Shown here: one piece after another, positions 3,119 to 47,808 of the stretch | How the letters are laid out: each line of letters begins with the position of its first letter | How positions within the stretch are numbered: the stretch's first letter is position 1 | Assembly: GCA_964421195.1 (NCBI GenBank) | Contig: CAYQWL010000002.1 | Span: 16,801-70,900 of the forward strand | Direction of reading: 5' to 3' | Origin: an uncultured bacterium | GTDB lineage: Bacteria; Muiribacteriota; UBA9980 | Length of the DNA stretch: 54,100 nt | Position numbers and translations under genes: made by a program | Notes under the pieces: generated by a model | Databases searched by the model: none | What the model was told of the DNA's origin: nothing | The model's input: the letters and a program-made list of their open reading frames with translations, nothing else

Positions 3119-4306
3119 TTATTCATATTTCCATACCATTATTTTATCGGAATTTTTTTTATCACGATAAGCTAAATAAGGCACTTTCTGACATACTGAA
3201 AGCGATAAATCGCAAACATCGTTCGAGCTAAAATCACGCCGTCCGATGACGCTCCAGTTTCCGGTTTCATTACTCATAACGGTTATGCGCTTTTCACTGG
3301 TATAATCACGGAACGCGACATATAAAACGCCGTTATAATCGGCAAGCGCGCAATCAGAAGCCGGTCCGTCAGAGACGCCTTCACCCGATATATTTTTCCA
3401 TACGGCGCCGTCATAAAGCATCACTTTAACACGAGAATTCGCCATACCGTCGCAATAAGCCATATACAGGCCGCCGTTAATCTGACGAAAATTAAGATAT
3501 GAAGCGTTTTCAGATGAAAATGCCTGCCCGCCTATATGTTCCCATATATCGAGAGTTTTGTTGAATTTAACGGCGCTTATTTTATTAGCGGCGGTTTTTT
3601 CAATATAAGCGGCATAAGGAACGCCGTCCAGAACGGCGAGTTTAATTTCTTTAACCTGCGAGCTGGATATGGCCGCCGCGCCAAGTTGCTTCCAATCGGC
3701 GCCATAGCGCATAAAAGCGTAAGGCCTATCAAAATTATCGCCATTACAATAAGCTACATAAAATTTATCATTGGTGTAATCAGAAATCTTAAAATCGAGA
3801 TAATTGGCTTTCTTATGCGTAAAACCGGCCGCTCCCACATATTGCCATGAACCGTTCACAAAACCGATTACGCTGATTTTATTTTCTAATGAAGACTCGG
3901 TATAAGCGCAATAAAGAACGTTTTTATATATTACAAATGAATGATATTCAGCGGCTGAAAAGCTCGCTCCGCCGTCATTCACGGTCTTCCACAAAAACCC
4001 GTCAAAACGTCCGACACTCACTTTTGAAGAATTCCCCTCATCGATAAAAGCGATATGCGGTACCAGATAATTAAAATATAAAACGGGAGCGCGGCCCGGT
4101 TTAAACATAAAATCGATATCGCCGGACATTTTCCATGAAGGCAAAGACGGTTTTTCTTCCGGCGAAGTACCGCCGCCGAAAAAATGATCGCTGGTACCGT
4201 CCGAACGGCAGCCGGCGGAACTAAATAAAAATAAAAGCAACGCCGGCAAATATATTAATAAGAAAAAAACCGCACGCATTTTAATTCTTTTTTTAAATAA
4301 AATCAT
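3119..4306 (-). CDS. Lipoprotein with about six ~48-aa repeats (probable beta-propeller)
   Basis: Hydrophobic N-terminus ending SSAG-C; repeats anchored on W-x-x-[VLI]-G ... S ... [LP]Y[VAM]A[YF]. Confidence 0.7.
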   Translation of the reverse strand: MILFKKRIKMRAVFFLLIYLPALLLFLFSSAGCRSDGTSDHFFGGGTSPEEKPSLPSWKMSGDIDFMFKPGRAPVLYFNYLVPHIAFIDEGNSSKVSVGRFDGFLWKTVNDGGASFSAAEYHSFVIYKNVLYCAYTESSLENKISVIGFVNGSWQYVGAAGFTHKKANYLDFKISDYTNDKFYVAYCNGDNFDRPYAFMRYGADWKQLGAAAISSSQVKEIKLAVLDGVPYAAYIEKTAANKISAVKFNKTLDIWEHIGGQAFSSENASYLNFRQINGGLYMAYCDGMANSRVKVMLYDGAVWKNISGEGVSDGPASDCALADYNGVLYVAFRDYTSEKRITVMSNETGNWSVIGRRDFSSNDVCDLSLSVCQKVPYLAYRDKKNSDKIMVWKYE

Positions 4307-4725: not shown

Positions 4726-5538
4726 ATGAAAAAAATTTTAATCGCCCTTGTTGTTCTATCCATGCTTTTTACCGTTAGTTCGGTTTTCGCGGCTTCAAAA
4801 GACGTAACGCAGCTTCAAAAAACGGCCGAACTCACCGCTCGCGCCGACGCGGCCGAAGACGAACCGCTTCCAGGCGATCAACTTCCGGGCGGCGAGCCTT
4901 CAGCTCCTTCGGTTCCGGTTCCTGACGATCCGTCGGCTCCTATCGATTCTAAAGTCAGCCAGTATTATTGCGTCATACCAAATGACCATGTCAAAAACTT
5001 AGAAGCTCTTTGCGCTAAATATAATGCGCCTATAAGCATTTACCGTTCATTCAACCAGCTTATAGTATTAAAAAGACTTGGCGTTCTCGTAAAAGTAGAT
5101 CCCACAAAAACATATTTCATCAAAAAACTTCGCGAAAATTATAATGCAAAACCATTAAGAAAATTATCGCTTAAAGTCAACGTATCGGTTAATTCGCTCA
5201 CCTACGGCATTAGCAAAGCGGCCGAAGCGTCGGTTAAAAACGAATTCGAACCTATCGAAGCGATACTCGAAGGCATGTTAAAAACCCCTTACGGCTATCA
5301 TAATACCATGTTTAAAACCATAGCTCTCAATTTTTCCGGCCTGCTCGATAAAGTAACCGTTAAAACCAATGATTACCTCGGCTTCGGCAAAAAACGCAAA
5401 ATATTATTCAATCCTGTCGTAACCATTGAGCTCACCGCTTTAAATATGAATGGAAAAAATAAACATGTAACCATGTTTTACAAACAATTCGCCTATAAAA
5501 CAATTAAACACGACGACAGCTATCAATGGGGCGAATAA
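4726..5538 (+). CDS. Secreted hypothetical protein with Pro/acidic linker
   Basis: GGAGG SD; Sec signal MKKILIALVVLSMLFTVSSVFA; EDEPLPGDQLPGGEPSAPSVPVPDDPSAP low-complexity segment. Confidence 0.8.
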   Translation: MKKILIALVVLSMLFTVSSVFAASKDVTQLQKTAELTARADAAEDEPLPGDQLPGGEPSAPSVPVPDDPSAPIDSKVSQYYCVIPNDHVKNLEALCAKYNAPISIYRSFNQLIVLKRLGVLVKVDPTKTYFIKKLRENYNAKPLRKLSLKVNVSVNSLTYGISKAAEASVKNEFEPIEAILEGMLKTPYGYHNTMFKTIALNFSGLLDKVTVKTNDYLGFGKKRKILFNPVVTIELTALNMNGKNKHVTMFYKQFAYKTIKHDDSYQWGE

Positions 5539-5585: not shown

Positions 5586-5620
5586 CCGCGCATTCCGTGT
5601 TAGAATGCGCGGTTATTTAT
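5586..5620 (+). terminator. Intrinsic terminator-like hairpin after the 4726 gene
   Basis: 10-bp perfect stem CCGCGCATTC / GAATGCGCGG, 7-nt loop, followed by TTATTTAT. Confidence 0.7.
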
Positions 5621-5648: not shown

Positions 5649-6548
5649 ATGAATGAAAATTACAAAATTAAATTTTTAACTCATATCCAGGCCGAAGATT
5701 TTAAAAATATGACTTACGGTCGTTATAAACCGTTTATCGCCTGGATGGATAATATTCTGGGAAAAATTTTCCCGGTGGGCCTTTATTACAAAAATCAGCC
5801 CGCGGGGTTTCTTCTGGCCCTGAATTCTTCATCTGAAAAAACGGCAGATATACTGTCGATATTCATAGAAAAACAACATCGCGGACAAAAAATAGCTATT
5901 GATATGATAAAATTTTTAATCGCCAGATGCCGCGAGGCCTCGATTAAAACTATCAGGACATTTTATTTTAGCAACCGCCCTTTCACGCCGATTATAAATA
6001 ACATTTTCAATAAATGCGAATTTTTTCCGGCCAGACCGGAAGTATTTTTCTGTAAATGCGATAAAAACATCACCAGAATGCCTTTAATAGAATATACCAA
6101 TCTGCCGGCCGGTTTTGAAACTTTTGACTGGAAAAGCATGAATTCAGAATTAAAAGAAAAGTTAAAATATGAATTGCAAAATAAAGATTGGTTCGATAAA
6201 AGGCTTTCGCCTTTTTCGCCGGAAGAAACCATAGTCGGCGGATTAAGCCTTGGACTTCGAAAAAAAAATAAAATAGCGGGATGGACTATATGCAATTATT
6301 TTAATGAAGACACGATATCATACACATCGATTTTTATAATGCCAGAATTTCAGGGCATGGCGCTCGGAATCGCCCTGCAAATGATTTCCATAAGAGCTCA
6401 TCTTCTCACGAACCTCGCCCAAAAATATCCATTCGGCATGTTCAATGTAAGATATGACAATCCAGCCCGGCTGAAAGCGGTTAAAAATAAAATAGCGAAA
6501 TACTCTATTGAACAATATGATCAGCTAATACGGGAAAAAAATCTTTAA
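5649..6548 (+). CDS. Tandem (two-domain) GNAT family acyltransferase
   Basis: Two acyl-CoA-binding motifs: SIFIEKQHRGQKIA and SIFIMPEFQGMALG. Lies directly upstream of lanM. Confidence 0.8.
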   Translation: MNENYKIKFLTHIQAEDFKNMTYGRYKPFIAWMDNILGKIFPVGLYYKNQPAGFLLALNSSSEKTADILSIFIEKQHRGQKIAIDMIKFLIARCREASIKTIRTFYFSNRPFTPIINNIFNKCEFFPARPEVFFCKCDKNITRMPLIEYTNLPAGFETFDWKSMNSELKEKLKYELQNKDWFDKRLSPFSPEETIVGGLSLGLRKKNKIAGWTICNYFNEDTISYTSIFIMPEFQGMALGIALQMISIRAHLLTNLAQKYPFGMFNVRYDNPARLKAVKNKIAKYSIEQYDQLIREKNL

Positions 6549-6589
6549 TGATAAAATGTAATTAAACATATATAATTTACAGGTCGAAC

Positions 6590-9500
6590 ATGAAAATAAG
6601 CGTTAACGACAAAAAAATGATAGCCGCAAAAGCCGCTTTTATAGAAGAACGCATATCCGGTTCCGTGATAGCGGCCGATTCAAACAATCACATAGAAAAC
6701 GTTTTGAACCGTGAAAATAACAAAAATAATATGCATTCAAAACTCATACGGCGATGGGCCGAATTAACTTCGGACGTTTTCGATGATAAAGGATTTGAAC
6801 GCCGCCTTAAATTAACATCAAAAAGCCTCGAAGCAATAAACGCCCTTACCGGCCCGGTCTTATGGAACGATGAAAAACCTTTACCAGAATGGATTTCAAC
6901 ATTAGAAGAATTTTTCAAAATTTTGCCCGCGTCTTATGATGAAATTATATCAGCGCTTCCTTCTAAATTAATGCCAGACGATTATTACGCTCCCTTTCAA
7001 CATGTCTGGGCGCCGTGGCTTTTAATATGTCGCCGGAAATTAAAACACTTCGCCGGCCGGGCTTTTAACCTTTTAAGCGTCAATGCTGAAATTTCATGGC
7101 TGCGGTATATATTAAATTCATTAAACACGGAATTCGCGCTCTGCCTCAATTCAGCCTTCGAACTTCTTAAATCTAATAATTTTATTTTTTTCAGCATGCC
7201 TCCGGCAGAATCATTTCCCGAAGGTTCTAAAACCCATTATAATAATTTTTCGAGGGTAATGCTCGAAGGCGGCTGGCTTGATTTTTTTAAAAAATACTCC
7301 GTAGCGGCCCGGCTTATATCCAATTTATGCGAATGCCAGGCGCTATATTTATCAGACGTTCTTAAAAATTACGAAAAAGACGCGGATAAAATCGAAAAAA
7401 CTTTCAACCAGAAAAGGAAGGCCGGCCGGATATCCGATTTAGAAGCCGGTCTTTCCGACTTTCACAACGGCGGAAAAAACGTCATTAAATTAAAATTTAA
7501 AAACGGACTCGCCGTTTATTACAAACCGCGCACCGGAAAAATCGACACTCTATGGGACGGAATTTTAAACTGGCTCGCGTCAAAAATAAAAAATATTAAA
7601 TTTAAAACGCCGGTTCGGCTGAATCGTCAAACGCATACCTGGGTTGAAAACATACAGGCAAACGATTTAATAAAAAAAGAAGAAACCGCGATTTTTTATT
7701 ATAAAGCCGGCGCCATATTAGCTTTAATATATGTTCTTGGCGGCACCGACTTTCATCAGGAAAATCTCATCGCCTGCGGCAGCGAACCCGTTTTAATAGA
7801 TCTTGAAACGCTATTAAGCCCGTCAGTCAAACCTTTTAATTACACAAACATGGACGATGAAGATAAAAAAAATTATCACGGCCTTGAAAGCGATTCCGTT
7901 TTAAGAACATGTATGCTGCCTCTCTGGACGGCTGTTTCAAAAAACATTTCAAGAGATTACGGCGCGCTCACGCCCGACGATGACTCTTTTTATTCGCGCA
8001 GAAAATGGCTGGATATAAACACCGATAAAATGAGACGCGGCTATATAGACCGAAAAAATACTTTTTCGCCCAACATCCCCCGGCTCAACGGAAAATATAT
8101 CGACACATTTAAATATAAAGAAAACATTATAAAAGGATTTAAAAACGCTTATAAAATAATTATGAATAACGGCGAAGAATTTTTAAACGAAACCGGACGG
8201 TTCGAAAAATTTAAAAACGCGCGCATACGTTATTTAACCAGACAATCGCAGGTATATGCCGATATGATCGACCGGCTGAGATCGCCGGCGTTAATGCGCG
8301 ACGGCGCGGCTTTTTCTATAGAATCCGAAGGTCTGGCAAAACCGTTTTTAAACTTCGCTTCCACTGAACGCATCGAAGCGCTCTGGAAATTATTCGAAGC
8401 CGAAAGAGGCGAAATTCTTTCTTTAAATATTCCATTATTCGAATTTACTTTAGACGGGCTTTCAATTTATGGGCCGTCTGGAAAAATACTGTCCGATTAT
8501 TTTTTGAAAACAGCTGTAGAACAGATTAAACGACGCACCATGAAATTGAGCGCAAAAGATCTCGAATTTCAATCAAATTTAATCGACGCTTCGTTTTTAT
8601 GCCGTTATCCAGATAAAATCAATAAAAATACTCCGGCTAAAAAGAAAAATAACAGATCCGCGATCGATCTTCCGTTGATTTCCGATAAAGAATATATTAA
8701 AACGGCTCGGTCCGCGGCCTATCAAATTGCTGAAAAAGCGGTTTATATCAAAGGAAAACCGCAATGGCTCACGCTTAAAACCGACCCGGAAAGCCGGAAA
8801 AATTTTATCGGCCCCATAGATTTAACTTTATATGAAGGCGCTTCAGGCATCGGCCTTTTTCTTTGCGCATACGAAAAACTGACGGGCGATCGAACCTATC
8901 GCACGCTCGCTATAGACTGCTTTTCAGAAATCGAAGAATTATTAAATGACCAATCAGCCGCAGTTGCGGCCGTAAAATCATCATGCGGTTACTGCGGAGG
9001 AATGCCCGGCATTTTCTGGGCGCTTTATAAATCGGGAAATTATATTCAGGACGAGCGGTTAATAGCAATGGCAAAAAAAGGCGAAAATTTATTAAACGCA
9101 AAAAACGTTAAAGATAGCGATGCGACGGATATAATCGGCGGCGCGGCAGGCGGCGCGCTTGCATTTTCAGCTTTATACGAAGCCCGCGGAAATGAACGGC
9201 TTATAGAGCTCGTTAAAATCCATGCTAAAAATTTAATTAACAAACGCTTTAAATACGATAAATGGAATTTATGGCCGTCAGACTACGCGTCAAAGCCTCT
9301 TACCGGATTCGCCCACGGCGCGGCAGGCTACGCTCTATCTTTAGCTAAAGCTTATGAACTGACCCGTATCGAAATTTTTAAAGAAGCCGCGCTCGAAGCC
9401 ATCGATTACGAAACTTCTAATTATATGCCCGAATATAATAACTGGCCGGATTTCAGACATAACCGGGCCTTAAAAACCGGAGAAACGGCTTTTATGGCCG

Positions 9501-9904
9501 GATGGTGTTCAGGAGCGCCTGGAATAGGGCTCGCGCGCATTAAAATGCCAAAATTTTTTCATGACCGAAAGATAAAAACCGATATCGAAAATGCTTTATC
9601 TTTTACTATAAATTTCAAGCATTTTTACAATTCACGCGATCACCTATGCTGCGGCGGCGCAGGCCGTATCGATTTTTTAATAGAAGCTTCCATAGCGCTT
9701 AATAGGCTCAATTTAATGGAAGACGCCAGAAAACAATTTTCATTTATAGTAAATAGAGCGGCTCTTAACGGCGGTTATACCCTGCCCGTCGAAGAATCAA
9801 AATCAATTTTTATGCCTGGACTTTTTACCGGCCTGTCGGGAATAGGATTAACCGCACTGAGACTTATCGATCCAAAAATAATTTCAAGCGCGTTAACCCC
9901 CTGA
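6590..9904 (+). CDS. lanM: Class II lanthipeptide synthetase LanM (dehydratase + LanC-like cyclase), CCG type
   Basis: Dehydratase motifs SDFHNGG, YYKPR, TDFHQENLIA, IDLETL, RYLTRQSQVY. Cyclase motifs LYEGASGI, GFAHGAAG, GWCSGAPG, HLCCGGAG, PGLFTGLSGIG. 1104 aa. Confidence 0.95.
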   Translation: MKISVNDKKMIAAKAAFIEERISGSVIAADSNNHIENVLNRENNKNNMHSKLIRRWAELTSDVFDDKGFERRLKLTSKSLEAINALTGPVLWNDEKPLPEWISTLEEFFKILPASYDEIISALPSKLMPDDYYAPFQHVWAPWLLICRRKLKHFAGRAFNLLSVNAEISWLRYILNSLNTEFALCLNSAFELLKSNNFIFFSMPPAESFPEGSKTHYNNFSRVMLEGGWLDFFKKYSVAARLISNLCECQALYLSDVLKNYEKDADKIEKTFNQKRKAGRISDLEAGLSDFHNGGKNVIKLKFKNGLAVYYKPRTGKIDTLWDGILNWLASKIKNIKFKTPVRLNRQTHTWVENIQANDLIKKEETAIFYYKAGAILALIYVLGGTDFHQENLIACGSEPVLIDLETLLSPSVKPFNYTNMDDEDKKNYHGLESDSVLRTCMLPLWTAVSKNISRDYGALTPDDDSFYSRRKWLDINTDKMRRGYIDRKNTFSPNIPRLNGKYIDTFKYKENIIKGFKNAYKIIMNNGEEFLNETGRFEKFKNARIRYLTRQSQVYADMIDRLRSPALMRDGAAFSIESEGLAKPFLNFASTERIEALWKLFEAERGEILSLNIPLFEFTLDGLSIYGPSGKILSDYFLKTAVEQIKRRTMKLSAKDLEFQSNLIDASFLCRYPDKINKNTPAKKKNNRSAIDLPLISDKEYIKTARSAAYQIAEKAVYIKGKPQWLTLKTDPESRKNFIGPIDLTLYEGASGIGLFLCAYEKLTGDRTYRTLAIDCFSEIEELLNDQSAAVAAVKSSCGYCGGMPGIFWALYKSGNYIQDERLIAMAKKGENLLNAKNVKDSDATDIIGGAAGGALAFSALYEARGNERLIELVKIHAKNLINKRFKYDKWNLWPSDYASKPLTGFAHGAAGYALSLAKAYELTRIEIFKEAALEAIDYETSNYMPEYNNWPDFRHNRALKTGETAFMAGWCSGAPGIGLARIKMPKFFHDRKIKTDIENALSFTINFKHFYNSRDHLCCGGAGRIDFLIEASIALNRLNLMEDARKQFSFIVNRAALNGGYTLPVEESKSIFMPGLFTGLSGIGLTALRLIDPKIISSALTP

Positions 9905-9976: not shown

Positions 9977-10096
9977 TTATTTAAGCCTGTCGGCTTTTAT
10001 TTCCGCATTGTTCCACGATTCGCGCAGACGCGCTAAAAGAATATCGCGCATTACCTCGTGGGCCGTCTTCTTTTGTGCAGGGCGTTCGTTCAACAA
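9977..10096 (-). CDS. Putative 39-aa small protein (MLNERPAQKKTAHEVMRDILLARLRESWNNAEIKADRLK)
   Basis: Manual translation. TTG start preceded by AGGAG (10110-10106); follows the upstream sORF by 17 nt. Below the ORF-track length cutoff. Confidence 0.45.
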   Translation of the reverse strand: MLNERPAQKKTAHEVMRDILLARLRESWNNAEIKADRLK

Positions 10097-10397: not shown

Positions 10398-13300
10398 TTA
10401 ATATGGTATAAACTCCAATCCAGGGTTTGTGGCATGAACATCTTTAATTAAAGCTTCCCAGCCCGACATCGAACTTTTATAATAAATTTTTGACAGATAA
10501 ATATCTTTAATTCCATCATATACAGCCGGAGCATTACCTGTAAAATAATAATCCGCGACGGTTAAATTTGAAGAAAAAGCTTTCGCTGCTATATTAACTA
10601 TACTTGAGCCTATGGTAGCCTTTTTTAATTTACAACCTCCAAAAGCTTCACTTTCAATCATTTCAACGGAAGGAAGATTTATCTCAGTAAGGCCTGATTT
10701 ATAAAATACTTTCGACCTTATTATTTTAACGCTTTCCGGTATCACTATCGAAGAAAGATCAGGACATTCAGACAGGCATTCAGAAGGCAGAACCGTTATA
10801 TCGTTTGGAAGAACTACGGAACAAAGCTTATAGCAGCCCTTGCAGGAAAAAGTTTTGACACCGGAAGGCAAAGCCACTTTTTTAACGTAATCATTTTCGA
10901 CATAAACAGCCTCGATTCCCTGCGATATTCTTACGCCCTCGAACTTAGAGCCGACGCCCTGATATATGTAACAATCTCTCACTTTACGCACATTATTTAT
11001 ATACGGCTTAACAGGCCCCATAGAAGGAATGGTAAACGAAACCGTTTCAAGGCCGGGATATACTATAGCGGTTACCGCCGCCTCGCAAGTTTCCGGGCAA
11101 AGCTCACCGCCCCTGTGCACGGTACAGTAATACTCGATTTCATCTCCCGAAGGTTTCGCCGATGAAATAAAAACATCGCGAATAGCATAATCCGCGCTCG
11201 TTACGCTCGAAAAAACTTTTTCGCTCTTATATGCTATCGCTTTTACAGTCGCGCTCGAAGATAACTTGAACGGCGCCGAATAAATAACGCCGCCGGCCGG
11301 AGTTGGTTCGCTCGAATCAATAGTATAACGAATAGTCGCGCCTTCGCTTGAACAGGTTATGGTGATGGTCTGATCTTCGGCGAAACTTCCTCCGGGCGGC
11401 GTTATGATAGGAGTTGCCACGTAAAAATCCATACTGCGGCTATAAATTTCCCATGTAAGCGAAAACAGTTCGGCGTCAAATTCCGCGAGCGTCCACGACA
11501 TCACTTCCAGAACGAAAGCCACGCGCGCGGCGACGCCGGCGGAAACGCTTAAATCGACTTTATTGGCTACGCTCATTTCAGCCAGAAATGAAAGGAATAC
11601 GTCAAGATACACTTTAGGCCCCGCGAGCCCGACTATTTTTAAAGCGAGCCCGACGCTTATATAAGGCTTGATCTCCACGGCGCCGTTTAATTCATAATCG
11701 TCTTTCGCCGAAGAAGTCCGTTTTATATCATTTATTTTGTTCCACGACACGCCGTCGTATTCCGCCCCCACACGCACCGCGAAGGTCCAATCGTTAGAAT
11801 ATTTATAAGAGCCCGTAACGCTCGCGTACGCGTCTATTCCACAGGTAATATCCCATTCAAAGGAGAATGGGACCGGACCGACAGCGAATATATAAGGCAT
11901 CGAATGAAAAAGTTCAAGTTCCGATTTAAGCGGCAACGATGCAGCGAGCGTTACATCAACCTGAAATTCTATGCCGCATGCAAGGTTTCCACCAATAACG
12001 AACAAAAACCTTTTTAGCTTGAACCAGCCTATTTCGATATCGCATTCAATAATCGGATCGAAGGAAATATCAGCTTTCGTAAGTGAAACCGTTAAGCTCG
12101 CATGTTCTAATATATTTTTAAGCTTATCTTTAGACACTATGCTTCTATCAGGAGAAGGAGCCGGCATAACGCTTTTCGAACGCAAAAATTTCGCCACGGC
12201 CTTAGCTTCCGGGCTGCCCGGAGCGGTAGTGTCGGTAGCGTGCAGGGTTGAAAGTTTTCCTTTATATGAATAGTCGAGCTCTTCAAAGGCCGATTCGAGA
12301 CGTGATTGAGTGGTGGTTATATATACCCTGCCGTTTTGCGACGATACAGCCTCGACTCTTCTTAAATATCCATTTCCATGATAACCTATCAGGATATCGT
12401 TTTTTTCTGGAATATCAGACTGATTGAGCACGTTTAAAACAATCTGAGTATCAGACACCGATTCAGTCGTAATCGTTTCTTCGTCTATTATTTTAGCTTT
12501 GGCGGCGAGCTTATAGCTGCATCTATACGTCGTCGTTTGAACGGGGTCAGAGCCGGAATTCGCTACGGACAGAGTAAAATAACATTCCTTTGAAATTCCA
12601 GACGCAGTGTCGGTATATAAAATAGTTATAACAGCCGCTGTAGAGTATTTCGGGGCCGCATAAACCTTCCCTGAAATTTTTCCAACGCTGGCTGTAAAAG
12701 AAGAATTGGCGGTAACTTCTAAAGTTGATCCGTCTGAATAAACGGCATAAACTTTTATCTTATCAAGATCATACGTTCCCGACGCGGCAACGCTATCTGA
12801 TGACGGCAGACAGTAAAGTTCGGTTAATAATTTTTGAAATTTTATATCATCGTCATAATTTATTTTCGTGTCCTGCGATGTATTTACGAAATATGCCTCA
12901 CCCGGTTTAAGCGAAGGATCGCTTCCGTCAAGCGCGACAATATTTCCTTCGGAATCACGCACTACCTGAATAAAACTCCCGGCAACCTGGCTCCATTTAT
13001 ATATGCCTTTAACCGATAAGCTGGATTTCAATAAATTTGTAAAAGTTTTTGCCGATGACGAAGACGACAGCTTAGAAATGCCGAGAAGATTGAAACCCTG
13101 CTTCAGGACAATATCTCCTATAGAAGCCGCAGGAGGGCCGTTTATAGTTAAATTAAAATCGGCGTTCGATTTTATTATATAACCTTTGCCCGTTGAAAGA
13201 TTATTCAAAGTTCCGTCGCTGAAGCTTAAAAAATTTCCAGCCGCAGCGCTATATAAATAAATATCTTCTATGTTCAGATTTTTAGATTTTAGCTCTGATA

Positions 13301-13481
13301 CATTATCTGACGGGGTAACGGTAAAGCTGACGAAATTAAATCCTGTTTTTAAAGCAACTTTTTGTTCGACAACCGAAGTCTGCGCCATTCCAGTTAAAAC
13401 AGACGCATGTAAAAACAATAAAAATAAAAGTAAAAAAACGATAACAGCAAAACATTTTTTTTTATTAAACACTGTAACCAC
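10398..13481 (-). CDS. Large secreted mosaic surface protein (N-terminal repeats, Ig-like segment, chitobiase/Fn3-like domain, C-terminal BspA-type LRRs)
   Basis: Signal peptide; two GFN[FL][VL] repeats; VATPIITPPGGSF...EGATIRYTIDSSEPT (CHB_HEX_C/Fn3-assoc-like); IVIPESVKII, LPSVEMIESEAF, IGSSIVNIAAKAF (LRR_5-like). Confidence 0.8.
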   Translation of the reverse strand: MVTVFNKKKCFAVIVFLLLFLLFLHASVLTGMAQTSVVEQKVALKTGFNFVSFTVTPSDNVSELKSKNLNIEDIYLYSAAAGNFLSFSDGTLNNLSTGKGYIIKSNADFNLTINGPPAASIGDIVLKQGFNLLGISKLSSSSSAKTFTNLLKSSLSVKGIYKWSQVAGSFIQVVRDSEGNIVALDGSDPSLKPGEAYFVNTSQDTKINYDDDIKFQKLLTELYCLPSSDSVAASGTYDLDKIKVYAVYSDGSTLEVTANSSFTASVGKISGKVYAAPKYSTAAVITILYTDTASGISKECYFTLSVANSGSDPVQTTTYRCSYKLAAKAKIIDEETITTESVSDTQIVLNVLNQSDIPEKNDILIGYHGNGYLRRVEAVSSQNGRVYITTTQSRLESAFEELDYSYKGKLSTLHATDTTAPGSPEAKAVAKFLRSKSVMPAPSPDRSIVSKDKLKNILEHASLTVSLTKADISFDPIIECDIEIGWFKLKRFLFVIGGNLACGIEFQVDVTLAASLPLKSELELFHSMPYIFAVGPVPFSFEWDITCGIDAYASVTGSYKYSNDWTFAVRVGAEYDGVSWNKINDIKRTSSAKDDYELNGAVEIKPYISVGLALKIVGLAGPKVYLDVFLSFLAEMSVANKVDLSVSAGVAARVAFVLEVMSWTLAEFDAELFSLTWEIYSRSMDFYVATPIITPPGGSFAEDQTITITCSSEGATIRYTIDSSEPTPAGGVIYSAPFKLSSSATVKAIAYKSEKVFSSVTSADYAIRDVFISSAKPSGDEIEYYCTVHRGGELCPETCEAAVTAIVYPGLETVSFTIPSMGPVKPYINNVRKVRDCYIYQGVGSKFEGVRISQGIEAVYVENDYVKKVALPSGVKTFSCKGCYKLCSVVLPNDITVLPSECLSECPDLSSIVIPESVKIIRSKVFYKSGLTEINLPSVEMIESEAFGGCKLKKATIGSSIVNIAAKAFSSNLTVADYYFTGNAPAVYDGIKDIYLSKIYYKSSMSGWEALIKDVHATNPGLEFIPY

Positions 13482-22315: not shown

Positions 22316-23428
22316 TTACACTATGGTATTTTCATCTTCGGTATCACATTCAAATAAATGCAGCTTATCGGTAATAACGCGGACCTTTATCTTATCGCCT
22401 TCCTGCACTCCGCAGCCCGATTCGAATTTAGCCACGGCATTATCGTCGCCGATCTTAAAATGAACGCAGCGTTCACTGCCAAGCAATTCTACAAGCTCGG
22501 CATTGATCTCTATTAAATTATCCGCAGCTGAAGAATCTTTATAAAGTTCAAAACATTCCGGACGGACACCGAGCGTCATTTTTTTATCGTTATATTTAGA
22601 TAATTTAGAGCCTTTATCGTTATATTTAATTTTAAATTCTCCATTAAGGCCGCATATATCAAAATTTTGACCGCCAGCGTTTTTAATCGTGCATTTAATA
22701 AAATTCATGGCGGGCGAACCAATAAAACCGGCGACAAATTTATTGGCCGGATGATCATAAACTTTTTGCGGCTCATCGGCCTGCTGAACGCGGCCTTTAT
22801 TGAATATAGCTATGCGGTCGCCCATCGTCATAGCCTCGGTCTGATCATGAGTTACATATATCGTTGTAGAATCGAGACGTTTATGCAATTTTCGAATCTC
22901 GGCCCGCATCGATACGCGCAATTTAGCGTCAAGGTTCGAAAGCGGTTCGTCCATTAAAAACACCTTGGGATCACGCACTATAGCTCGTCCAAGGGCCACG
23001 CGCTGACGCTGGCCGCCGGAAAGCTGCTTGGGCTTTTTTTCGAGATACGAAGTCAAATCGAGTATTTTCGCGGCATTTTCAACGCGTTTTTTAATTTCAT
23101 CTTTAGCGAAATTCCTGAGAGTAAGGCCGAAAGCCATGTTATCGAATATATTCATGTGCGGATACAGCGCGTAATTTTGAAACACCATCGCTATGTCGCG
23201 GTCCTTCGGTTGAAGATCATTCACGAGAGTTTCGCCGATAAATATTTTTCCTTCAGTTATTTCCTCGAGTCCGGCGATCATTCTTAAAGTGGTGGTTTTA
23301 CCGCAGCCCGACGGGCCTACCATTACTAAAAACTCTTTGTCCTTAATATGCAGATCGGTGGGAAATATAGTATATTCGGCATTACCTTCATACTTTTTAG
23401 TCACCTGCTGCAATATAACTTGAGCCAT
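22316..23428 (-). CDS. ugpC: CUT1 sugar/glycerol-3-phosphate ABC ATPase (MalK/UgpC/MsmX family)
   Basis: Walker A GPSGCGKT, signature LSGGQ, Walker B FLMDEP, YVTHDQ, C-terminal TOBE-like region. Start set at ATG 23428 (AAGGGTG upstream); the track gives 23437. Confidence 0.93.
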   Translation of the reverse strand: MAQVILQQVTKKYEGNAEYTIFPTDLHIKDKEFLVMVGPSGCGKTTTLRMIAGLEEITEGKIFIGETLVNDLQPKDRDIAMVFQNYALYPHMNIFDNMAFGLTLRNFAKDEIKKRVENAAKILDLTSYLEKKPKQLSGGQRQRVALGRAIVRDPKVFLMDEPLSNLDAKLRVSMRAEIRKLHKRLDSTTIYVTHDQTEAMTMGDRIAIFNKGRVQQADEPQKVYDHPANKFVAGFIGSPAMNFIKCTIKNAGGQNFDICGLNGEFKIKYNDKGSKLSKYNDKKMTLGVRPECFELYKDSSAADNLIEINAELVELLGSERCVHFKIGDDNAVAKFESGCGVQEGDKIKVRVITDKLHLFECDTEDENTIV

Positions 23429-23487
23429 GCAATTCACCCTTTCGTCATGCTTTATTTATTAACGCGTACTTTTAAATTTTATGGTTG

Positions 23488-41602: not shown

Positions 41603-43606
41603 CTATCCGAGAAGCCCTGCGCTCAAATTAGATTTAACGGGTAAAGTTATCTTAAAAGTAGTGGATTCGCCATAAACACTATCGACGGTAATTTTACCTC
41701 GATGCATTTTTATTATCCCATAAACGACGGGCAATCCAAGTCCCGTTCCCTTGCCATAACCTTTAGTAGTAAAAAATGGAGTAAACAATTTCGGCATTTT
41801 ATCTTTAGGAATGCCGATACCGTTATCATTAAAAGATATTATGACTTCTTCATCATGTTTTACCACGTGCACATTAATAATTCCCGGAGAACGTTTAGCC
41901 TCGATCAAAGCGTCTTTCGAATTAGAAATCAAGTTAGTAAAAACCTGAAGCAGCGCCGTTTGATCGGCTTCGATAACAAGCGAATCAGGGCAATCGACTT
42001 TAATAGAAATATTAATGCCGATAGAAACATAATCATTTCTTATTTTAGTGCATAAGTCTTTTATAAAAGCGGAAAAATCAAATTCAATTATAGTAAGTTT
42101 ATTTTCTCTGGAAAAATTAAGCATTCCGGTTATAATTTCTTTAGTACGGTTAATTTCGCTAATAATAGTTTTAACGTCATCTTTCAGTTCGTCGTTTTCG
42201 ATCTGCTCGTTCAGCATGTGCGCATACAGCAGAACCGTGCCGAGAGGATTATTTATTTCATGCGCGACTCCGGCAGCCATCTGACCGAGCGAAACTAATT
42301 TTTCTTTCTGTATAAGCTCATTTTGCGTAGATTTAAGCATTTGATTCGACTGTTGTAACAAATTAAGATTTTCTTCAAGTTTTTCTATAACATAAGGCAG
42401 GCACATTTCTTTTTCGGCGAGGCCGGCTATTATAGCGCGCGCCTTGGCGCGGCACGAAGGATAACCGCATGCGCCGCAATTTAGTTCATCTTTAGGCTGG
42501 GTTTTTCCCATTTCTATAAGCACTTTTTTTATTTCCGCCGAATCGGCTTCTTTAATTTCCGATACTTCTTCCGATTCAAATACCACGCTTAAATCAATAT
42601 TTTTATATTTTTCAATTTCTATTTTCCAGCGTTGCTGATTACTTTGAGACATACGGCTTTTAATATATTCAGACATTTGAGATTTTTTTTCAAAATAATT
42701 AAGCTCGGAACATATTTTAGGACCGTCGATGCAGCCGAGGCAAAAGAGCATATCAATAAATTTACCGTCAAGCGAACCTTTTTTAATCGAATCGAGCACC
42801 ATTAAAACACGGTCTTTGCCCTCTGTAACTATAGTTTCGTTATCTACTATATCCTCAGTTTTTTCGGCGCATTTTAACAGCCCTCCGGTAACCGGGTAAA
42901 TAGCTCCAAGATTGGCGTGCGGCGGATCAAAATCGATTTTATTGAGCTTTTCTATATCAATTTTATTTTCAATAATCCATAACTTTAATTCTTCAAATGT
43001 AATAACGTAATCAATGTCACGGATATAATTGCTTCTTTCATCTATTTTCGCTATGCACGGCCCGATAAACGCGGTTCGGCGGCCGGGGTTTTTCAATCTG
43101 GCCACGCGCGCGGAAGCCACCATAGGGCTGACTATCGGCGCTAAATATTTGATCAATTCGGGCTCGTATTTTTGAACGTATTTAACTATGGCAGGGCATG
43201 GAGTTGCAATTACGGTTTTTCCTTTATTTTCGGAAAGATATTTTTTATAAGCCAGAGTTACGAGATCGGCGCCAAAACCCACTTCATAAACATTTTTAAA
43301 GCCAAGCGCCTTTAAAACGCTGACGAGTTTAACGCCCACGTCCATAAAACTTACGACAAAAGACGGCGCAACCAATGCGTCTATATCTTTAAACGCGATA
43401 TCATTTTTAAGTTCGTTAAAATATGAAAGCACCACTTTAGCGTTTTGCGAACAAACCGTAGTGCAATGGCCGCATGAAATACAACGGAAGCTGATAACGC
43501 TCGCCTTGCCGTCTTTAACTTTAATGGCATGCGCCGGGCAGCTTTTTATACATGCATAACATTTTTTACATTTCTCTCCGATAGTGGATACTACTGACAC
43601 GCTCAT
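41603..43606 (-). CDS. Sensory group C [FeFe]-hydrogenase-like domain fused to histidine kinase (HydS-HK)
   Basis: 2x[4Fe-4S] CKKCYACIKSC and CISCGHC; variant H-cluster motifs TPCP, GPCIAKIDE, MLFCLGCIDG; FeS domain NCGACGYPSC; AHEINNPL, NLISNS, DNGIGI, GTGLGL. Confidence 0.9.
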   Translation of the reverse strand: MSVSVVSTIGEKCKKCYACIKSCPAHAIKVKDGKASVISFRCISCGHCTTVCSQNAKVVLSYFNELKNDIAFKDIDALVAPSFVVSFMDVGVKLVSVLKALGFKNVYEVGFGADLVTLAYKKYLSENKGKTVIATPCPAIVKYVQKYEPELIKYLAPIVSPMVASARVARLKNPGRRTAFIGPCIAKIDERSNYIRDIDYVITFEELKLWIIENKIDIEKLNKIDFDPPHANLGAIYPVTGGLLKCAEKTEDIVDNETIVTEGKDRVLMVLDSIKKGSLDGKFIDMLFCLGCIDGPKICSELNYFEKKSQMSEYIKSRMSQSNQQRWKIEIEKYKNIDLSVVFESEEVSEIKEADSAEIKKVLIEMGKTQPKDELNCGACGYPSCRAKARAIIAGLAEKEMCLPYVIEKLEENLNLLQQSNQMLKSTQNELIQKEKLVSLGQMAAGVAHEINNPLGTVLLYAHMLNEQIENDELKDDVKTIISEINRTKEIITGMLNFSRENKLTIIEFDFSAFIKDLCTKIRNDYVSIGINISIKVDCPDSLVIEADQTALLQVFTNLISNSKDALIEAKRSPGIINVHVVKHDEEVIISFNDNGIGIPKDKMPKLFTPFFTTKGYGKGTGLGLPVVYGIIKMHRGKITVDSVYGESTTFKITLPVKSNLSAGLLG

Positions 43607-43699
43607 CCCGCCCCGTCATATAAAAAATGATCAGGCTCAAAGCGGGACGGCATATAACCGGCGCGCTTCGAGGCCTGATATATCAGGTGTTCGTTATTT

Positions 43700-44107
43700 T
43701 TAATGACCGTGAGAATTATTGACCGCGGTATTTAATATACCGTTGACCTTTTCAAGTAAAATACCGGGATTAATCGGTTTATCAAGAAACATATCCGCTT
43801 TGATCCATTGCCGTTCCTTGGCTTCGTTCAAATCGAACTGGATTTCAGATTCCTGATTAACCGAAGTAGCGAGTATAACCGGAACGTCGGGACGCGCTTT
43901 TTTAATTTTATAAGCGAGTATAAAACCGGCATCGTAAGTTTCCATAATTAAATCGAGTATTACGAGATCGGGGGTGAATTTTTCGAATTTTTCCCAGCCT
44001 TCCTCGCCGGTTTCAGCGGTTTCTATTGAATATCCATTAGATGATAATGTTTCCGTAATTATTTCCCTTACATCGGAATCGTCGTCAACTATCAATATTT
44101 TCTTCAT
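43700..44107 (-). CDS. Single-domain response regulator (REC)
   Basis: ILIVDDD, LVILDLIM, ILATS, LDKP. Confidence 0.93.
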   Translation of the reverse strand: MKKILIVDDDSDVREIITETLSSNGYSIETAETGEEGWEKFEKFTPDLVILDLIMETYDAGFILAYKIKKARPDVPVILATSVNQESEIQFDLNEAKERQWIKADMFLDKPINPGILLEKVNGILNTAVNNSHGH

Positions 44108-44109
44108 GA

Positions 44110-45831
44110 TTATTTATCCCCCTTATACCTTGTGTGTAATAGCTCGTGCGCGTCATGTTCGTTTATATGCTTTTCATAAAGTTCTTTAACGTCGGGATTT
44201 TCATGTGAACGGCGGATGACGGAATTTTCATCGACTTTATAAGTGGTTTTAGTTCGCGATTTCAAAAGATCGGCATCGGTGTTAAACGGCTGACCGGCGC
44301 CTCCAACGCAACCCGCGGGGCAGCTCATAATTTCGACGAAATGAAGATCGGATTTTCCGGCGGAAATATCTTCTAATATCTCTACGGCGTTTCCAAGCCC
44401 ATTCACGACGCCTACGTTAATCTTTGTTCCATCTATATCGACCGTGGCGCGTTTAATTCCGGCCATACCACGAACCGGCTTGCAATCGATATTTTCAAGT
44501 TCTTTTCCCGTAACCATATTATACGCGGTTCTGATAGCGGCTTCCATAACGCCGCCCGTCGCGCCGAATATTTTACCCGCGCCTGAGGCATGAGCGAAAG
44601 GCCTGTCAAAATCAGAACTCTGTATTTTTTCATATTGTATGCCGAATTCATCGAGCAGCGAAAACAGTTCACGCGTGGTTAAAACGGCATCCACATTGGC
44701 CATGCCTTCATTTTGAAGCTGAGGCCGAACTATTTCAGATTTTTTAGCGACGCAGGGCATTACCGATACCACAAAAAGATCTTTCGCTTTAACTTTCAAC
44801 AGTTTTTCACTGAGATGTTTAAGCAGCGCGCCCTTCATTATATGGGGCGATTTGCAGCTCGACAGATGTTTTGTATGCTTCGGATAAAACGTTTCAATAA
44901 AATTAATCCATGCGGGACAGCACGAAGTAAACATCGGAAGCGGCTTATGTTTTTTAGTCAGCCGTTCGACGAGTTCTTTAGCTTCTTCCATAATAGTTAT
45001 ATCCGCCGCCGTACAGGTGTCAAAAACAAAATCAACGCCTATGCCGCGCAACGCGCCGATTATTTTACCGACAGCCTCTTCGACCGGTATCGATTTTTTA
45101 AAATATTCTGGAAATGTTACATGACATGCGGGCGCGAATTGAAAAGCCACCTTTTTTCCAGGATTGATTATCGCATCGATAACCGTTTTTTTATGAGGAA
45201 TTTCACGTAAAGCGCCGACGGGGCAAGCCATAATACACTGTCCGCAGGAAACGCAATTACCTTCAGCGAGAGATTTATAACTTCCCGGCGCTACATGCGT
45301 GCTGAAGCCGCGATTAGCGAAATCAATAGCCGACACTCTTTGCTTTTCGGCGCATACGGTAACGCAGCGGCCGCAAAGTATGCATTTCGCCATATCGCGT
45401 TCAACGGCGGGCGACGCTTTATCGATAACCATTTTCTTTTTAGCTCCGCCCTTAAAGGCGACTTCGTCAACGCCGTATTGTTTTGAAAGATCCTGCAACA
45501 GGCAATTTCCGCTTTTTGAACATGTAAGGCAGTCCTGTGGATGGTTAGAAAGTAAAAGTTCGATTATTTTCTTACGCGACATTCTAACCTGCGGCGAATC
45601 GGTGCGCACCTGCATTCCAGCTTCGGCCGGATACGAACAGGAAGCTATAAGGCGGCCGGTTTTAACGTCTTCGACCACGCAGATCCGGCATGCGCCTGAA
45701 GGCTTATAGCCTTCCATATAACAGAGTGTTGGAATAAACAGGCCGGCTTTTTTAGCAACCTGATAGATAGTTTCGCCTTTAATAAACTCGACTTCTTTAT
45801 TATTTATTGTCATTTTCAATTTCGTCTTCAC
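44110..45831 (-). CDS. hydA: [FeFe]-hydrogenase catalytic subunit HydA (group A, multimeric/bifurcating type)
   Basis: [2Fe-2S] C..GACRIC, His-ligated HPQDCLTC, 2x[4Fe-4S], canonical L1 TSCCPAW, L2 MPCVAKKSE, L3 EIMSCPAGCVGG; small-subunit RRSHENP...LLHT. Confidence 0.97.
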   Translation of the reverse strand: MKTKLKMTINNKEVEFIKGETIYQVAKKAGLFIPTLCYMEGYKPSGACRICVVEDVKTGRLIASCSYPAEAGMQVRTDSPQVRMSRKKIIELLLSNHPQDCLTCSKSGNCLLQDLSKQYGVDEVAFKGGAKKKMVIDKASPAVERDMAKCILCGRCVTVCAEKQRVSAIDFANRGFSTHVAPGSYKSLAEGNCVSCGQCIMACPVGALREIPHKKTVIDAIINPGKKVAFQFAPACHVTFPEYFKKSIPVEEAVGKIIGALRGIGVDFVFDTCTAADITIMEEAKELVERLTKKHKPLPMFTSCCPAWINFIETFYPKHTKHLSSCKSPHIMKGALLKHLSEKLLKVKAKDLFVVSVMPCVAKKSEIVRPQLQNEGMANVDAVLTTRELFSLLDEFGIQYEKIQSSDFDRPFAHASGAGKIFGATGGVMEAAIRTAYNMVTGKELENIDCKPVRGMAGIKRATVDIDGTKINVGVVNGLGNAVEILEDISAGKSDLHFVEIMSCPAGCVGGAGQPFNTDADLLKSRTKTTYKVDENSVIRRSHENPDVKELYEKHINEHDAHELLHTRYKGDK

Positions 45832-45837
45832 GCTAAA

Positions 45838-47658
45838 TCACTCCTTCACGATAGCTGAGAATTTACATGTGCTCAGGCAGAGCAGACAGCCTGTGCATTT
45901 ATCGGCCGCGATAACATAAGGCGTGCCGGGCTTTCCGTAAATCGCGCCCTGCGGGCATTTACGAGCGCAAAGACTGCATCCTCTACATTTTTCGGTAACT
46001 ATAACGCATTTAACCATCGATGAGCAAACGTGAGTGGGGCATTTTTTTTCAAAAATATGAGCTTCATATTCGTCACGAAAATGTTTGAGCGTGGATAAAA
46101 CCGGGTTGCTCGCGGTCTGTCCGAGGCCGCAGAGCGAACTATTTTTAATAACTGAACATAGTTCTTCGAGTTCGAGAACGCCTTTAAATCTAAGAAGCTC
46201 ATCGGAAGATTTTTTCTGATTCGACACATTGAGCACTATTCTATCGAGTATTTCATAAAGCCTTTTCGTGCCTTCACGGCAGGGGATACATTTACCGCAG
46301 GATTCGTTCTGGATAAAATTCATGAAAAAACGAGCCACATCGACCATACAGGTGGTATCGTCCATTACGACCATACCGCCGGAGCCCATTATTGCGCCGT
46401 TTTCTTTAAGAGATTCATAAGTTATTTTAGTATCCATAAGTTTTTCCGGCATACATGCGCCGGAAGGGCCGCCGATCTGTACGGCTTTAAATTTACGGCC
46501 TTCAGGAACGCCGCCGGCTATATCGTTAATCAGGGTCCTCAATGTAATTCCCATCGGCACTTCTATAAGGCCGGAATATTTAACGCGGCCCGTTACGGCA
46601 AAAACTTTCGTGCCGAGCGATTTTCCTTCGCCGAACGCCGCGAATTTAGAGGAGCCTTCACGCAATATCCAGGGAACGTTAGCAAAAGTTTCGACGTTAT
46701 TAATAACGGTCGGCTTACCAAAAAGGCCTTTTTCGGCAGGATATGGCGGGCGCGGAGTCGGCATTCCACGTTTACCTTCTATAGAAGCGAGAAGCGCGGT
46801 TTCTTCACCGCATACAAAAGCTCCTGCGCCCTTTTTAACTTTAAGTTCAAAGCAAAACTTAGAATTAAGAATATTTTTACCGAGCACGCCTTTTTCTTTA
46901 CACTGCTTGATAGCGTTTTCGAGGCGTTCGATAGCGAGCGGATATTCGGCCCTCGCATAAATATATCCGAAAGAAGCGCCGATAGCGTAAGCGCCGATAA
47001 TTATACCTTCTATAACTCTGAACGGATCGCTTTCGAGCACGGCGCGATCCATAAACGCGCCGGGATCGCCTTCGTCGGCGTTCATAACTATATATTTTTT
47101 ATTACCAGGCTGTTTATACGCCAGGTCCCATTTAATGGAAGTCGGAAACCCGCCGCCGCCGCGGCCCCTTAATCCGGATTTTTTTATCTCGTCTATAACA
47201 TCCTCCGGTTTCATAGCTGAAAGCACTTTCTTTAAAGCCACGAATCCAAGAGCTTTTGAATAATCATCAAACGAATAAGGGTTTATTATACCGCAATTTT
47301 CAAGCGCCACTCTTTTTTGACGGGCAAAATAAGGCGTTTCATAAACGCATGGCATATTCGGAGTTTTTTTATAAGTGCCGAGAAGCCATTTATTGGAATA
47401 ATTTTTATTATCGATCATTTCGATTAAAAACTCGGTAACGTTTTGAGGAGTTATTTCGCAATAAGCCATACGCGGCATGGAAGAAAATTCGAAATCGACC
47501 ATAACCTCGCGCGAGCAATAACCGATACAACCGACCGGTATCATTTCAAAAGCCATTTTACGAACATCGAGAAAATCTTCGATTGTTTTTTTTATTTCGA
47601 GCGCTCCCTGCGCAAGACCGCAGGTACCCATCCCGATATATACCTTTAACTTATCCAT
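45838..47658 (-). CDS. hydB: NADH-binding flavin subunit HydB (NuoF-like)
   Basis: N-terminal thioredoxin-like FeS, SGLRGRGGGGFPT, NADEGDPGAFMDR, GAFVCGEET, ESCGKCIPCREG, C-terminal 2x[4Fe-4S]; GGAGG SD. Confidence 0.96.
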   Translation of the reverse strand: MDKLKVYIGMGTCGLAQGALEIKKTIEDFLDVRKMAFEMIPVGCIGYCSREVMVDFEFSSMPRMAYCEITPQNVTEFLIEMIDNKNYSNKWLLGTYKKTPNMPCVYETPYFARQKRVALENCGIINPYSFDDYSKALGFVALKKVLSAMKPEDVIDEIKKSGLRGRGGGGFPTSIKWDLAYKQPGNKKYIVMNADEGDPGAFMDRAVLESDPFRVIEGIIIGAYAIGASFGYIYARAEYPLAIERLENAIKQCKEKGVLGKNILNSKFCFELKVKKGAGAFVCGEETALLASIEGKRGMPTPRPPYPAEKGLFGKPTVINNVETFANVPWILREGSSKFAAFGEGKSLGTKVFAVTGRVKYSGLIEVPMGITLRTLINDIAGGVPEGRKFKAVQIGGPSGACMPEKLMDTKITYESLKENGAIMGSGGMVVMDDTTCMVDVARFFMNFIQNESCGKCIPCREGTKRLYEILDRIVLNVSNQKKSSDELLRFKGVLELEELCSVIKNSSLCGLGQTASNPVLSTLKHFRDEYEAHIFEKKCPTHVCSSMVKCVIVTEKCRGCSLCARKCPQGAIYGKPGTPYVIAADKCTGCLLCLSTCKFSAIVKE

Positions 47659-47808
47659 AAAATTTTTCCTCCAGGATTATATTTATGATATATTTTTATT
47701 TATTCATAACTTCATGCTTTATATTTTACATTATGTTTTATATCTTACATTTTATAAAAACAATAAAGCATTAGATGTTTTTCAATCATCCGAAATTCGG
47801 AATTTAAA

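Follow-up and report, generated by a model that had tools for sequence, protein, structure and literature searches.

To our knowledge, no ribosomal peptides other than selidamides carry fatty acyl groups on their side chains, and only three selidamide pathways have been characterised. The acyltransferases of these pathways, KspN, PhaN and NpuN, fatty-acylate Orn or Lys side chains, and clusters of the selidamide type, which combine a GNAT-superfamily enzyme with a class II lanthipeptide synthetase (LanM), are widespread across phyla (PMC8784127). The npu cluster encodes the Nif11 precursor NpuA, the ProcM-clade LanM NpuM and the tandem GNAT NpuN, which acylates Lys1 of the NpuA core (PMC8784127, PMC13060382). 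NpuN has a clear P-loop in its N-terminal domain and used C2-C18 acyl-CoAs in vitro (PMC13060382), and the acyltransferases KspN and PhaN are leader-guided and tolerant of different cores (PMC13647313). Prochlorosins are described as the products of one promiscuous ProcM and many Nif11/NHLP precursors scattered over the genome (PMC8784127, PMC10783134). Lipolanthines, goadvionins and lipoavitides are described as class III peptides GNAT-acylated at the N-terminus, with LanKC, a dedicated polyketide synthase (PKS) or fatty acid synthase (FAS) and the alpha-amine as acceptor (PMC13060382). Here we analysed a 54,100-nt stretch (hereafter the window) of contig CAYQWL010000002.1 from an uncultured bacterium, on which a tandem GNAT gene is followed by a LanM gene. 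The best explanation for this pair, to which we assign a probability of roughly 70% from sequence comparisons, is that the two enzymes form a conserved module that matures ribosomal peptides and would acylate lanthipeptides.

The original prediction placed a two-domain GNAT (299 aa) 41 nt ahead of a complete LanM on the same strand, and this layout was borne out by the open reading frames (ORFs), Pfam, NCBIfam and AlphaFold2/Foldseek. Both ORFs start with ATG (5649-6548, +, 299 aa; 6590-9904, +, 1104 aa), and the pair comprises the following features.

5649..6548, strand +: tandem GNAT of the NpuN (selidamide) family, predicted peptide Lys N-acyltransferase (ORF, Pfam, BLASTP, hhalign, structure model)
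5877..5897, strand +: N-domain motif A, pyrophosphate-binding loop HRGQKIA (aa 77-83), aligning with the NpuN P-loop HRCAGIG
6348..6374, strand +: C-domain motif-A-like segment FQGMALGIA (aa 234-242), read from sequence and alignments
6549..6589, strand +: intergenic spacer of 41 nt, with no terminator-like site inside
6590..9904, strand +: class II lanthipeptide synthetase LanM, 1104 aa, ProcM/NpuM-like (Pfam, TIGR03897, NpuM alignment)
7748..7810, strand +: dehydratase kinase-like motifs DFHQEN (aa 387-392) and IDLET (aa 403-407), aligning with NpuM DCHNEN and VDMET
9305..9658, strand +: cyclase motifs GFAHGAAG (aa 906), WCSGAPG (aa 972) and HLCCGG (aa 1018), from sequence and orthologue comparison

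GNAT and LanM are probably co-transcribed, judging from this arrangement. Both genes were intact, with a rough ratio of nonsynonymous to synonymous substitution rates (dN/dS, with dS near saturation) against orthologues of ~0.14-0.17 for the GNAT and ~0.22 for the LanM. For comparison, the npu locus (L015 among our locus labels) of Nostoc punctiforme PCC 73102 was recovered via its precursor NpuA. It shares with the window a minimal enzyme set, a tandem GNAT of ~295-300 aa and a LanM with a Cys-Cys-Gly (CCG) motif, both homologous over their full length (GNAT 26%, LanM 27%), but its gene order is LanM, precursor and GNAT rather than GNAT then LanM.

The LanM matched DUF4135 (E 1.7e-96) and LANC_like (E 2.6e-59) in Pfam, scored 717 bits with the NCBIfam LanM model TIGR03897 against a cut-off of 304, and aligned with NpuM at 27% identity over its full length (1120 columns, E 1e-116). 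Motifs of the DFHQEN/IDLET type are catalytic in LanM enzymes, and a zinc motif that reads Cys-Cys-Gly and not Cys-His-Gly marks ProcM-type enzymes. The DxHxxN, D-x-E, HG, WCxG and CCG motifs were all intact in the window LanM; DFHQEN was identical across the 10 orthologues checked, and the zinc motif (HLCCG) was common to the window LanM, NpuM and all orthologues checked. One orthologue (L007, 7292-10486) is shorter, at 1064 aa, and lacks the GxxHGxxG motif of the others; damage to this copy or a faulty assembly could account for this.

Pfam found a single Acetyltransf_1 match (aa 39-102, E 3.6e-10) in the 299-aa GNAT. An AlphaFold2 model from an 18-sequence alignment (mean predicted local distance difference test score, pLDDT, 85.5; predicted template modelling score, pTM, 0.80) had two alpha/beta GNAT-like halves, and the best Foldseek matches in the PDB were all tandem GNATs (2wpw, 7q3a, VipF 7wx7/6wqb, 5kga and MshD 1ozp; E 1e-14 to 1e-9). 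The model and these matches confirm a two-domain GNAT, although Pfam sees only one domain, and the fold agrees with that described for NpuN (PMC13060382). The solved tandem GNATs (clavulanate-pathway 2wpw, MAB_4324 7q3a, VipF, the glucosamine N-acetyltransferase 5kga, MshD) share the two-domain architecture at template modelling scores (TM-scores) of 0.55-0.67, but they are 10-16% identical, have unrelated substrates and gave no significant sequence match, the best PDB chain scoring 16 bits (E 0.05) against the GNAT clade profile.

The relation to NpuN was much closer. BLASTP aligned the two proteins at 26% identity over 241 aa (E 8e-34), covering both domains, and hhalign gave a probability of 99.8% over 276 columns that run through the two domains and the linker. 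With the clade profile of the window GNAT, NpuN reached 150.2 bits, which would rank it about 19th when 1.84 billion representative proteins are searched exhaustively by profile. NpuN was the one compared directly of the selidamide acyltransferases NpuN, KspN and PhaN. The rimI model TIGR01575 gave 24 bits with the window GNAT, below its equivalog cut-off of 86. A clustering with housekeeping acetyltransferases, which had been named as fatal to the original prediction, was thus contradicted by the RimI score, by PDB GNATs at no more than 16 bits and by NpuN as a full-length homologue at 150 bits. A word-indexed search with the GNAT returned 18 close relatives (50-100% identity), those with a name being Candidatus Wallbacteria. 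The tiny family suggested by these 18 matches was an effect of the word index and was dismissed, as the exhaustive profile search found 1447 family representatives; the best 150 of the 1447 were mostly ~290-320 aa, with nearly full-length profile matches. Tandem GNATs of the NpuN family also occurred fused to DUF4915, an S-adenosylmethionine (SAM) methyltransferase, a cytochrome P450 or a family-2 glycosyltransferase (P0037, P0039, P0054, P0153, P0038, P0145, P0143); for the fusion protein P0037, the source gives the name 'TIGR03032 family'.

All family conservation figures derive from 138 aligned family members. Among these, the window GNAT retained 9/9 positions conserved at 90% or more (G53, S70, R78, W161, P188, F189, S200, G211, W212). 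R78, in the N-domain loop, is present in 98% of the family, and A83 of the same loop is also retained. Within the C-domain, G240, A242 and L243 were invariant in the 18-member clade. Some members of the clade have canonical loops such as RRRGLA and RGKGLS.

The pairing of GNAT and LanM was conserved, in agreement with the original prediction. With duplicates merged, 13 distinct loci carried a window-type GNAT (the window, L001, L003, L005, L006, L007, L008, L010, L018, L019, L023, L024, L025), and GNAT was followed by LanM in 10 of the 11 with sufficient downstream sequence. LanM came directly after GNAT in nine (the window, L001, L003, L005, L006, L007, L008, L018, L023), and one precursor gene sits between the two in L010. 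L019 has six precursor genes 3' of the GNAT and then the contig end, and the contigs of L024 and L025 stop too early downstream of the GNAT for LanM to be scored. Identities to the window pair co-varied across loci, at 58-75% for the GNAT and 48-68% for the LanM.

The original prediction had proposed a search for Nif11/NHLP-leader peptides containing Cys, Ser/Thr and Lys. The orthologous loci encode Nif11-leader peptides that have all of these, the Lys being N-terminal and conserved. Nif11-type precursor genes (~130 aa) lay beside or around the GNAT in 6 of the 13 distinct loci (L001, L010, L018, L019/L020, L024, L025), and in L019 the GNAT is embedded in an array of nine. A profile search gave at least 138 members of this precursor family, many sharing a contig, and all members with a name were Candidatus Wallbacteria. 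Their leaders, of 86 aa, close with ...ELSDxDLxxVAGG. The cores, with a mean of 47 aa, are highly variable and are built on a scaffold of G-x-x-K, a hydrophobic stretch, S...G-I-x-C-A-x-x-S and then ...C...S-T-T..C. The acceptor-Lys feature was scored on precursors of the related loci: Lys occurred within the first 8 core residues in 113 of 119 cores and was the commonest residue at core position 4 (60/119) and position 5 (31/119). At least three Cys were present in 110/119, with a mean Ser+Thr count of 9.3. This N-terminal core Lys fits, at the level of sequence, the selidamide pattern of Lys/Arg at core ends (PMC8784127). Scanning the genome collection with NpuA returned only three unrelated Nif11 loci (L012-L014) and missed the Nostoc locus.

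A different type of peptide (76-87 aa), with a short leader and a double-Gly motif, was encoded directly upstream of the GNAT in four loci.

L003:9613-9876: short-leader double-Gly peptide
L008:1971-2201: short-leader double-Gly peptide
L010:3778-4008: short-leader double-Gly peptide
L019:2073-2303: short-leader double-Gly peptide

The final ~17 residues of these leaders match the end of the Nif11-type leaders. Three of the cores are Lys-rich with four Cys, and the L003 core has no Cys and is WW-domain-like (LPPGW...). A gene for a sigma-70-family factor lies just ahead of the peptide in L003, L008 and L019, and not in L010. A similarity of the short leader to GNAT aa 157-214 (tblastn E 0.004) was attributed to chance, with an hhalign probability of 0.7%.

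Precursors and enzymes were not always encoded together. In GCA_964551445.1 the GNAT-LanM pair is on contig 21 (L003) and the precursor array on contig 51 (L016), where at least 10 called genes are of Nif11-precursor size (122-161 aa), several with Nif11 matches, and no LanM or GNAT was present within 20 kb. The closest relatives of the window (L005, L006, L007) also have no adjacent precursors. Because of this split and these three loci, a bare enzyme pair appears normal for the system, and by analogy the enzymes likely act in trans on precursors encoded elsewhere. Genes for FrsA-like/Peptidase_S15 and other alpha/beta-hydrolases, and for metallo-beta-lactamase-fold and Peptidase_M15 proteins, occurred among the precursor genes (L016:1577-16127; L010:683-1954); their products could be leader peptidases or deacylases. 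A paralogous module with the order LanM then GNAT (286 aa) was found inside a Wallbacteria-type precursor array (L017:5072-9220), its LanM and GNAT being 34% and 31% identical to NpuM and NpuN, compared with 29% and 25% to the window pair.

The original prediction of a selidamide-like acyl-lanthipeptide system gained support, at the level of sequence, from the NpuN homology, the conserved pairing and the Nif11 precursors in orthologous loci. In the mechanism that we infer, the LanM would phosphorylate and then eliminate core Ser/Thr residues, and Cys thiols would add to give (methyl)lanthionine rings. The tandem GNAT, as a distant member of the NpuN/KspN/PhaN family, would take an acyl group off an acyl thioester, which is acyl-CoA for NpuN, and attach it to the epsilon-amine of a Lys close to the core N-terminus. 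Acylation would take place on the same core while the leader is attached, and would be leader-guided as for KspN and PhaN; the acyl chain length cannot be predicted from sequence. The substrates would most likely be Nif11-leader precursors, with the short-leader double-Gly peptides as a second possible class, and the precursor genes would lie at other places in this genome, like those of the prochlorosins relative to ProcM. A C39-peptidase ABC transporter encoded outside the window would cut the leader after Gly-Gly and export the product.

Several observations weigh against this mechanism. No plausible precursor was present in the 54-kb window, either in a motif scan of all 25-140-aa ORFs or by tblastn with nine precursor queries including NpuA, and tblastn with related-locus proteins found no C39 transporter, HlyD, OEP or DUF7005 gene there. 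The tblastn search of the window for DUF7005, C39-ABC, HlyD, OEP, sigma factor and FrsA-like proteins returned only a generic ABC ATPase (22316-23437). The precursor search covered the window, so that substrates in this genome are presumptive, and some of the Nif11 precursors may belong to the L017 module rather than to the window type. The conserved Lys precedes a long hydrophobic stretch and could serve membrane interaction instead of acyl acceptance. When the window GNAT loop was set against the canonical acyl-CoA P-loop Q/R-x-x-G-x-G/A, through its alignment with the NpuN loop, the central Gly (Gly in 87% of the family, and in some members of the clade too) was replaced by K81, and C-domain position 238 (Gly in 74% of the family) is Ala. 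The window GNAT is only 26% identical to NpuN, and its clade, whose activity is predicted, has no characterised member. K81, A238 and the low identity may leave room for a different donor or weak activity.

The same enzymes and substrates could also yield no lipopeptide at all, if the GNAT adds a short acyl group (e.g., acetyl) or masks the Lys charge until export, as self-protection or regulation. NpuN takes acetyl-CoA in vitro and the bioactivity of nostolysamide was unchanged by acylation (PMC13060382), no sequence feature fixes chain length, and the loop variants K81 and A238 could alter donor binding. We nevertheless consider this outcome unlikely, as in vivo the three family members that have been characterised all choose C10-C16 acyl groups (PMC8784127) and NpuN has been argued to be an improbable resistance enzyme (PMC13060382). 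It is a good deal less probable that the pair is an orphan remnant, parted from its precursors and exporter by rearrangement and left with no current substrate. Most related loci carry at least one gene for a precursor, transporter, sigma factor or DUF7005 and the window carries none, but both ORFs are intact, all catalytic motifs are kept and dN/dS is well below 1; the precursor-free L005, L006 and L007 and the separate contigs of GCA_964551445.1 likewise make such separation normal.

Replacement of the central Gly in both P-loop-like motifs, together with the finding that one domain is non-catalytic in several tandem GNATs (PMC13060382), would suit a GNAT-like protein that serves as a non-catalytic partner and binds leader or substrate for the LanM. 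This reading is slightly more improbable again, since the protein retains R78 and the rest of the near-invariant family residues, canonical loops occur in some clade members and the characterised relatives are active enzymes. Scarcely credible is a generic housekeeping N-acetyltransferase lying beside the LanM by chance: the generic Acetyltransf_1 match is all that Pfam gives, and the reading was rejected on the NpuN homology, on the RimI and PDB scores given above and on the conservation of the pairing. An acylating two-enzyme module remained the best account of the pair.

Compared with the described systems, this module most resembles npu. The related Wallbacteria loci have Nif11 leaders ending in VAGG and Lys at the core start, as npu does, and the HlyD-like, C39-ABC and second ABC genes that follow NpuN recur as the same three in L003, L005 and L006. 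It differs from npu in that the window has no precursor or exporter and sequence identity is low, in that precursors lie apart from the enzymes and the P-loop Gly is Lys in the window GNAT, and in that related-locus cores are longer (mean 47 vs 25 aa), more hydrophobic and arranged in large diversified arrays. Judging by homologue names, the window probably comes from Candidatus Wallbacteria, an uncultivated anaerobic lineage, and not from a cyanobacterium. The kamptornamide (ksp) and phaeornamide (pha) systems likewise combine a GNAT side-chain N-fatty-acyltransferase, a LanM and a Gly-Gly junction (PMC8784127, PMC13647313), but have NHLP leaders and an arginase that makes the Orn acceptor; family scans found no arginase or hydroxylase gene in the window or related loci. 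With prochlorosins the related loci share the CCG LanM and many diversified Nif11 precursors per genome, some far from the synthetase, whereas prochlorosin systems are described in those papers without a GNAT and here the LanM is always GNAT-partnered. Lipidation of a lanthipeptide by a GNAT-superfamily enzyme is common to lipolanthines, goadvionins and lipoavitides. The window synthetase is a LanM, in contrast to lipolanthines and goadvionins (LanKC model 68 bits against a cut-off of 575), and no PKS, FAS or acyl carrier protein family match was found among the window ORFs scanned.

The edges of the module may be marked by two hairpins.

5586..5612, strand +: G+C-rich hairpin, 11 pairs with 7 G-C, between the upstream gene (4726-5538) and the GNAT
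9983..9996, strand +: weak terminator-like hairpin, 5 pairs with 3 G-C, 79 nt past the LanM stop, a consensus match only

From its sequence and position, the first is likely the terminator of the upstream gene and would mark the 5' edge, and the second is a possible 3' edge. Two flanking genes (3119-4306, -; 4726-5538, +) encode proteins that have hydrophobic N-termini and match no family, and a third (10398-13481, -) encodes a 1027-aa BspA-type leucine-rich-repeat surface protein; none of the three is kept beside the GNAT-LanM pair in other loci. The ORFs 3119-4306, 4726-5538 and an esterase-like ORF (681-2219) were considered as parts of the module and rejected, having no link to families of peptides that are made by ribosomes and modified after translation (RiPPs) and no conservation beside the pair elsewhere.

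In six related loci, a DUF7005 gene (~360 aa) lies beside the pair.

L003:7691-8770: DUF7005 gene
L005:14267-15364: DUF7005 gene
L006:14366-15463: DUF7005 gene
L007:10481-11575: DUF7005 gene
L008:17-1126: DUF7005 gene
L018:8360-9439: DUF7005 gene

Export genes flank the pair in L003, L005 and L006, encoding OEP, a periplasmic-binding protein, HlyD-like, C39-ABC and second ABC proteins. The L018 GNAT and LanM are 70% and 67% identical to those of the window, and a 470-aa ORF (L018:13-1425), transposase-like by eye, adjoins the Nif11 precursor gene upstream of this pair. The pair in L001 (1-9583) has as neighbours five genes for B12-binding radical-SAM proteins and one for a Nif11 precursor of 92 aa (L001:2879-3157), whose core, LTFVGIDYAFVSIQTAKH, contains no Cys; these genes look like a separate proteusin-like cluster.

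Far downstream in the window, a gene (41603-43606, -) encodes a [FeFe]-hydrogenase-like domain fused to HisKA/HATPase domains, which suggests a sensory hydrogenase-kinase, and a response-regulator gene and HydABC-like genes (44110-48969, -) adjoin it. The original prediction had called the lineage H2-using: the [FeFe]-hydrogenase genes are present (41603-48969), and H2 use itself would follow from those genes only.

The literature searched contained no link between Wallbacteria and lanthipeptides or RiPPs. The new chemistry that had been foreseen for this system was indicated by none of the observations; such a pairing of enzymes, this type of leader and the probable chemistry have all been described before, and no new question is opened. 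The genome most likely produces acylated ring peptides of a kind described before, with their precursor genes lying outside the window. A possible variant feature is an acyltransferase coupled to a prochlorosin-like precursor library. In its fullest form this would be a 'lipo-prochlorosin' system, in which a single acyltransferase guided by the leader, together with a single promiscuous LanM, would act in trans on at least 10 hypervariable Nif11 precursors per genome that share a Lys near core position 4. It would give combinatorial side-chain-acylated, membrane-active lanthipeptides in an uncultivated anaerobic phylum, alongside an L017-type LanM-GNAT module and a sigma-factor-linked short-leader peptide; we put this forward tentatively, with the odds somewhat against it. 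The acylating module itself would carry the selidamide family into a candidate phylum without cultured members and would tie it to precursor arrays that are large and diversified. Should the acyltransferase be as core-tolerant as KspN, these genomes would hold a natural library of lipidated lanthipeptides, and the enzyme would offer a divergent addition to peptide-lipidation tools.

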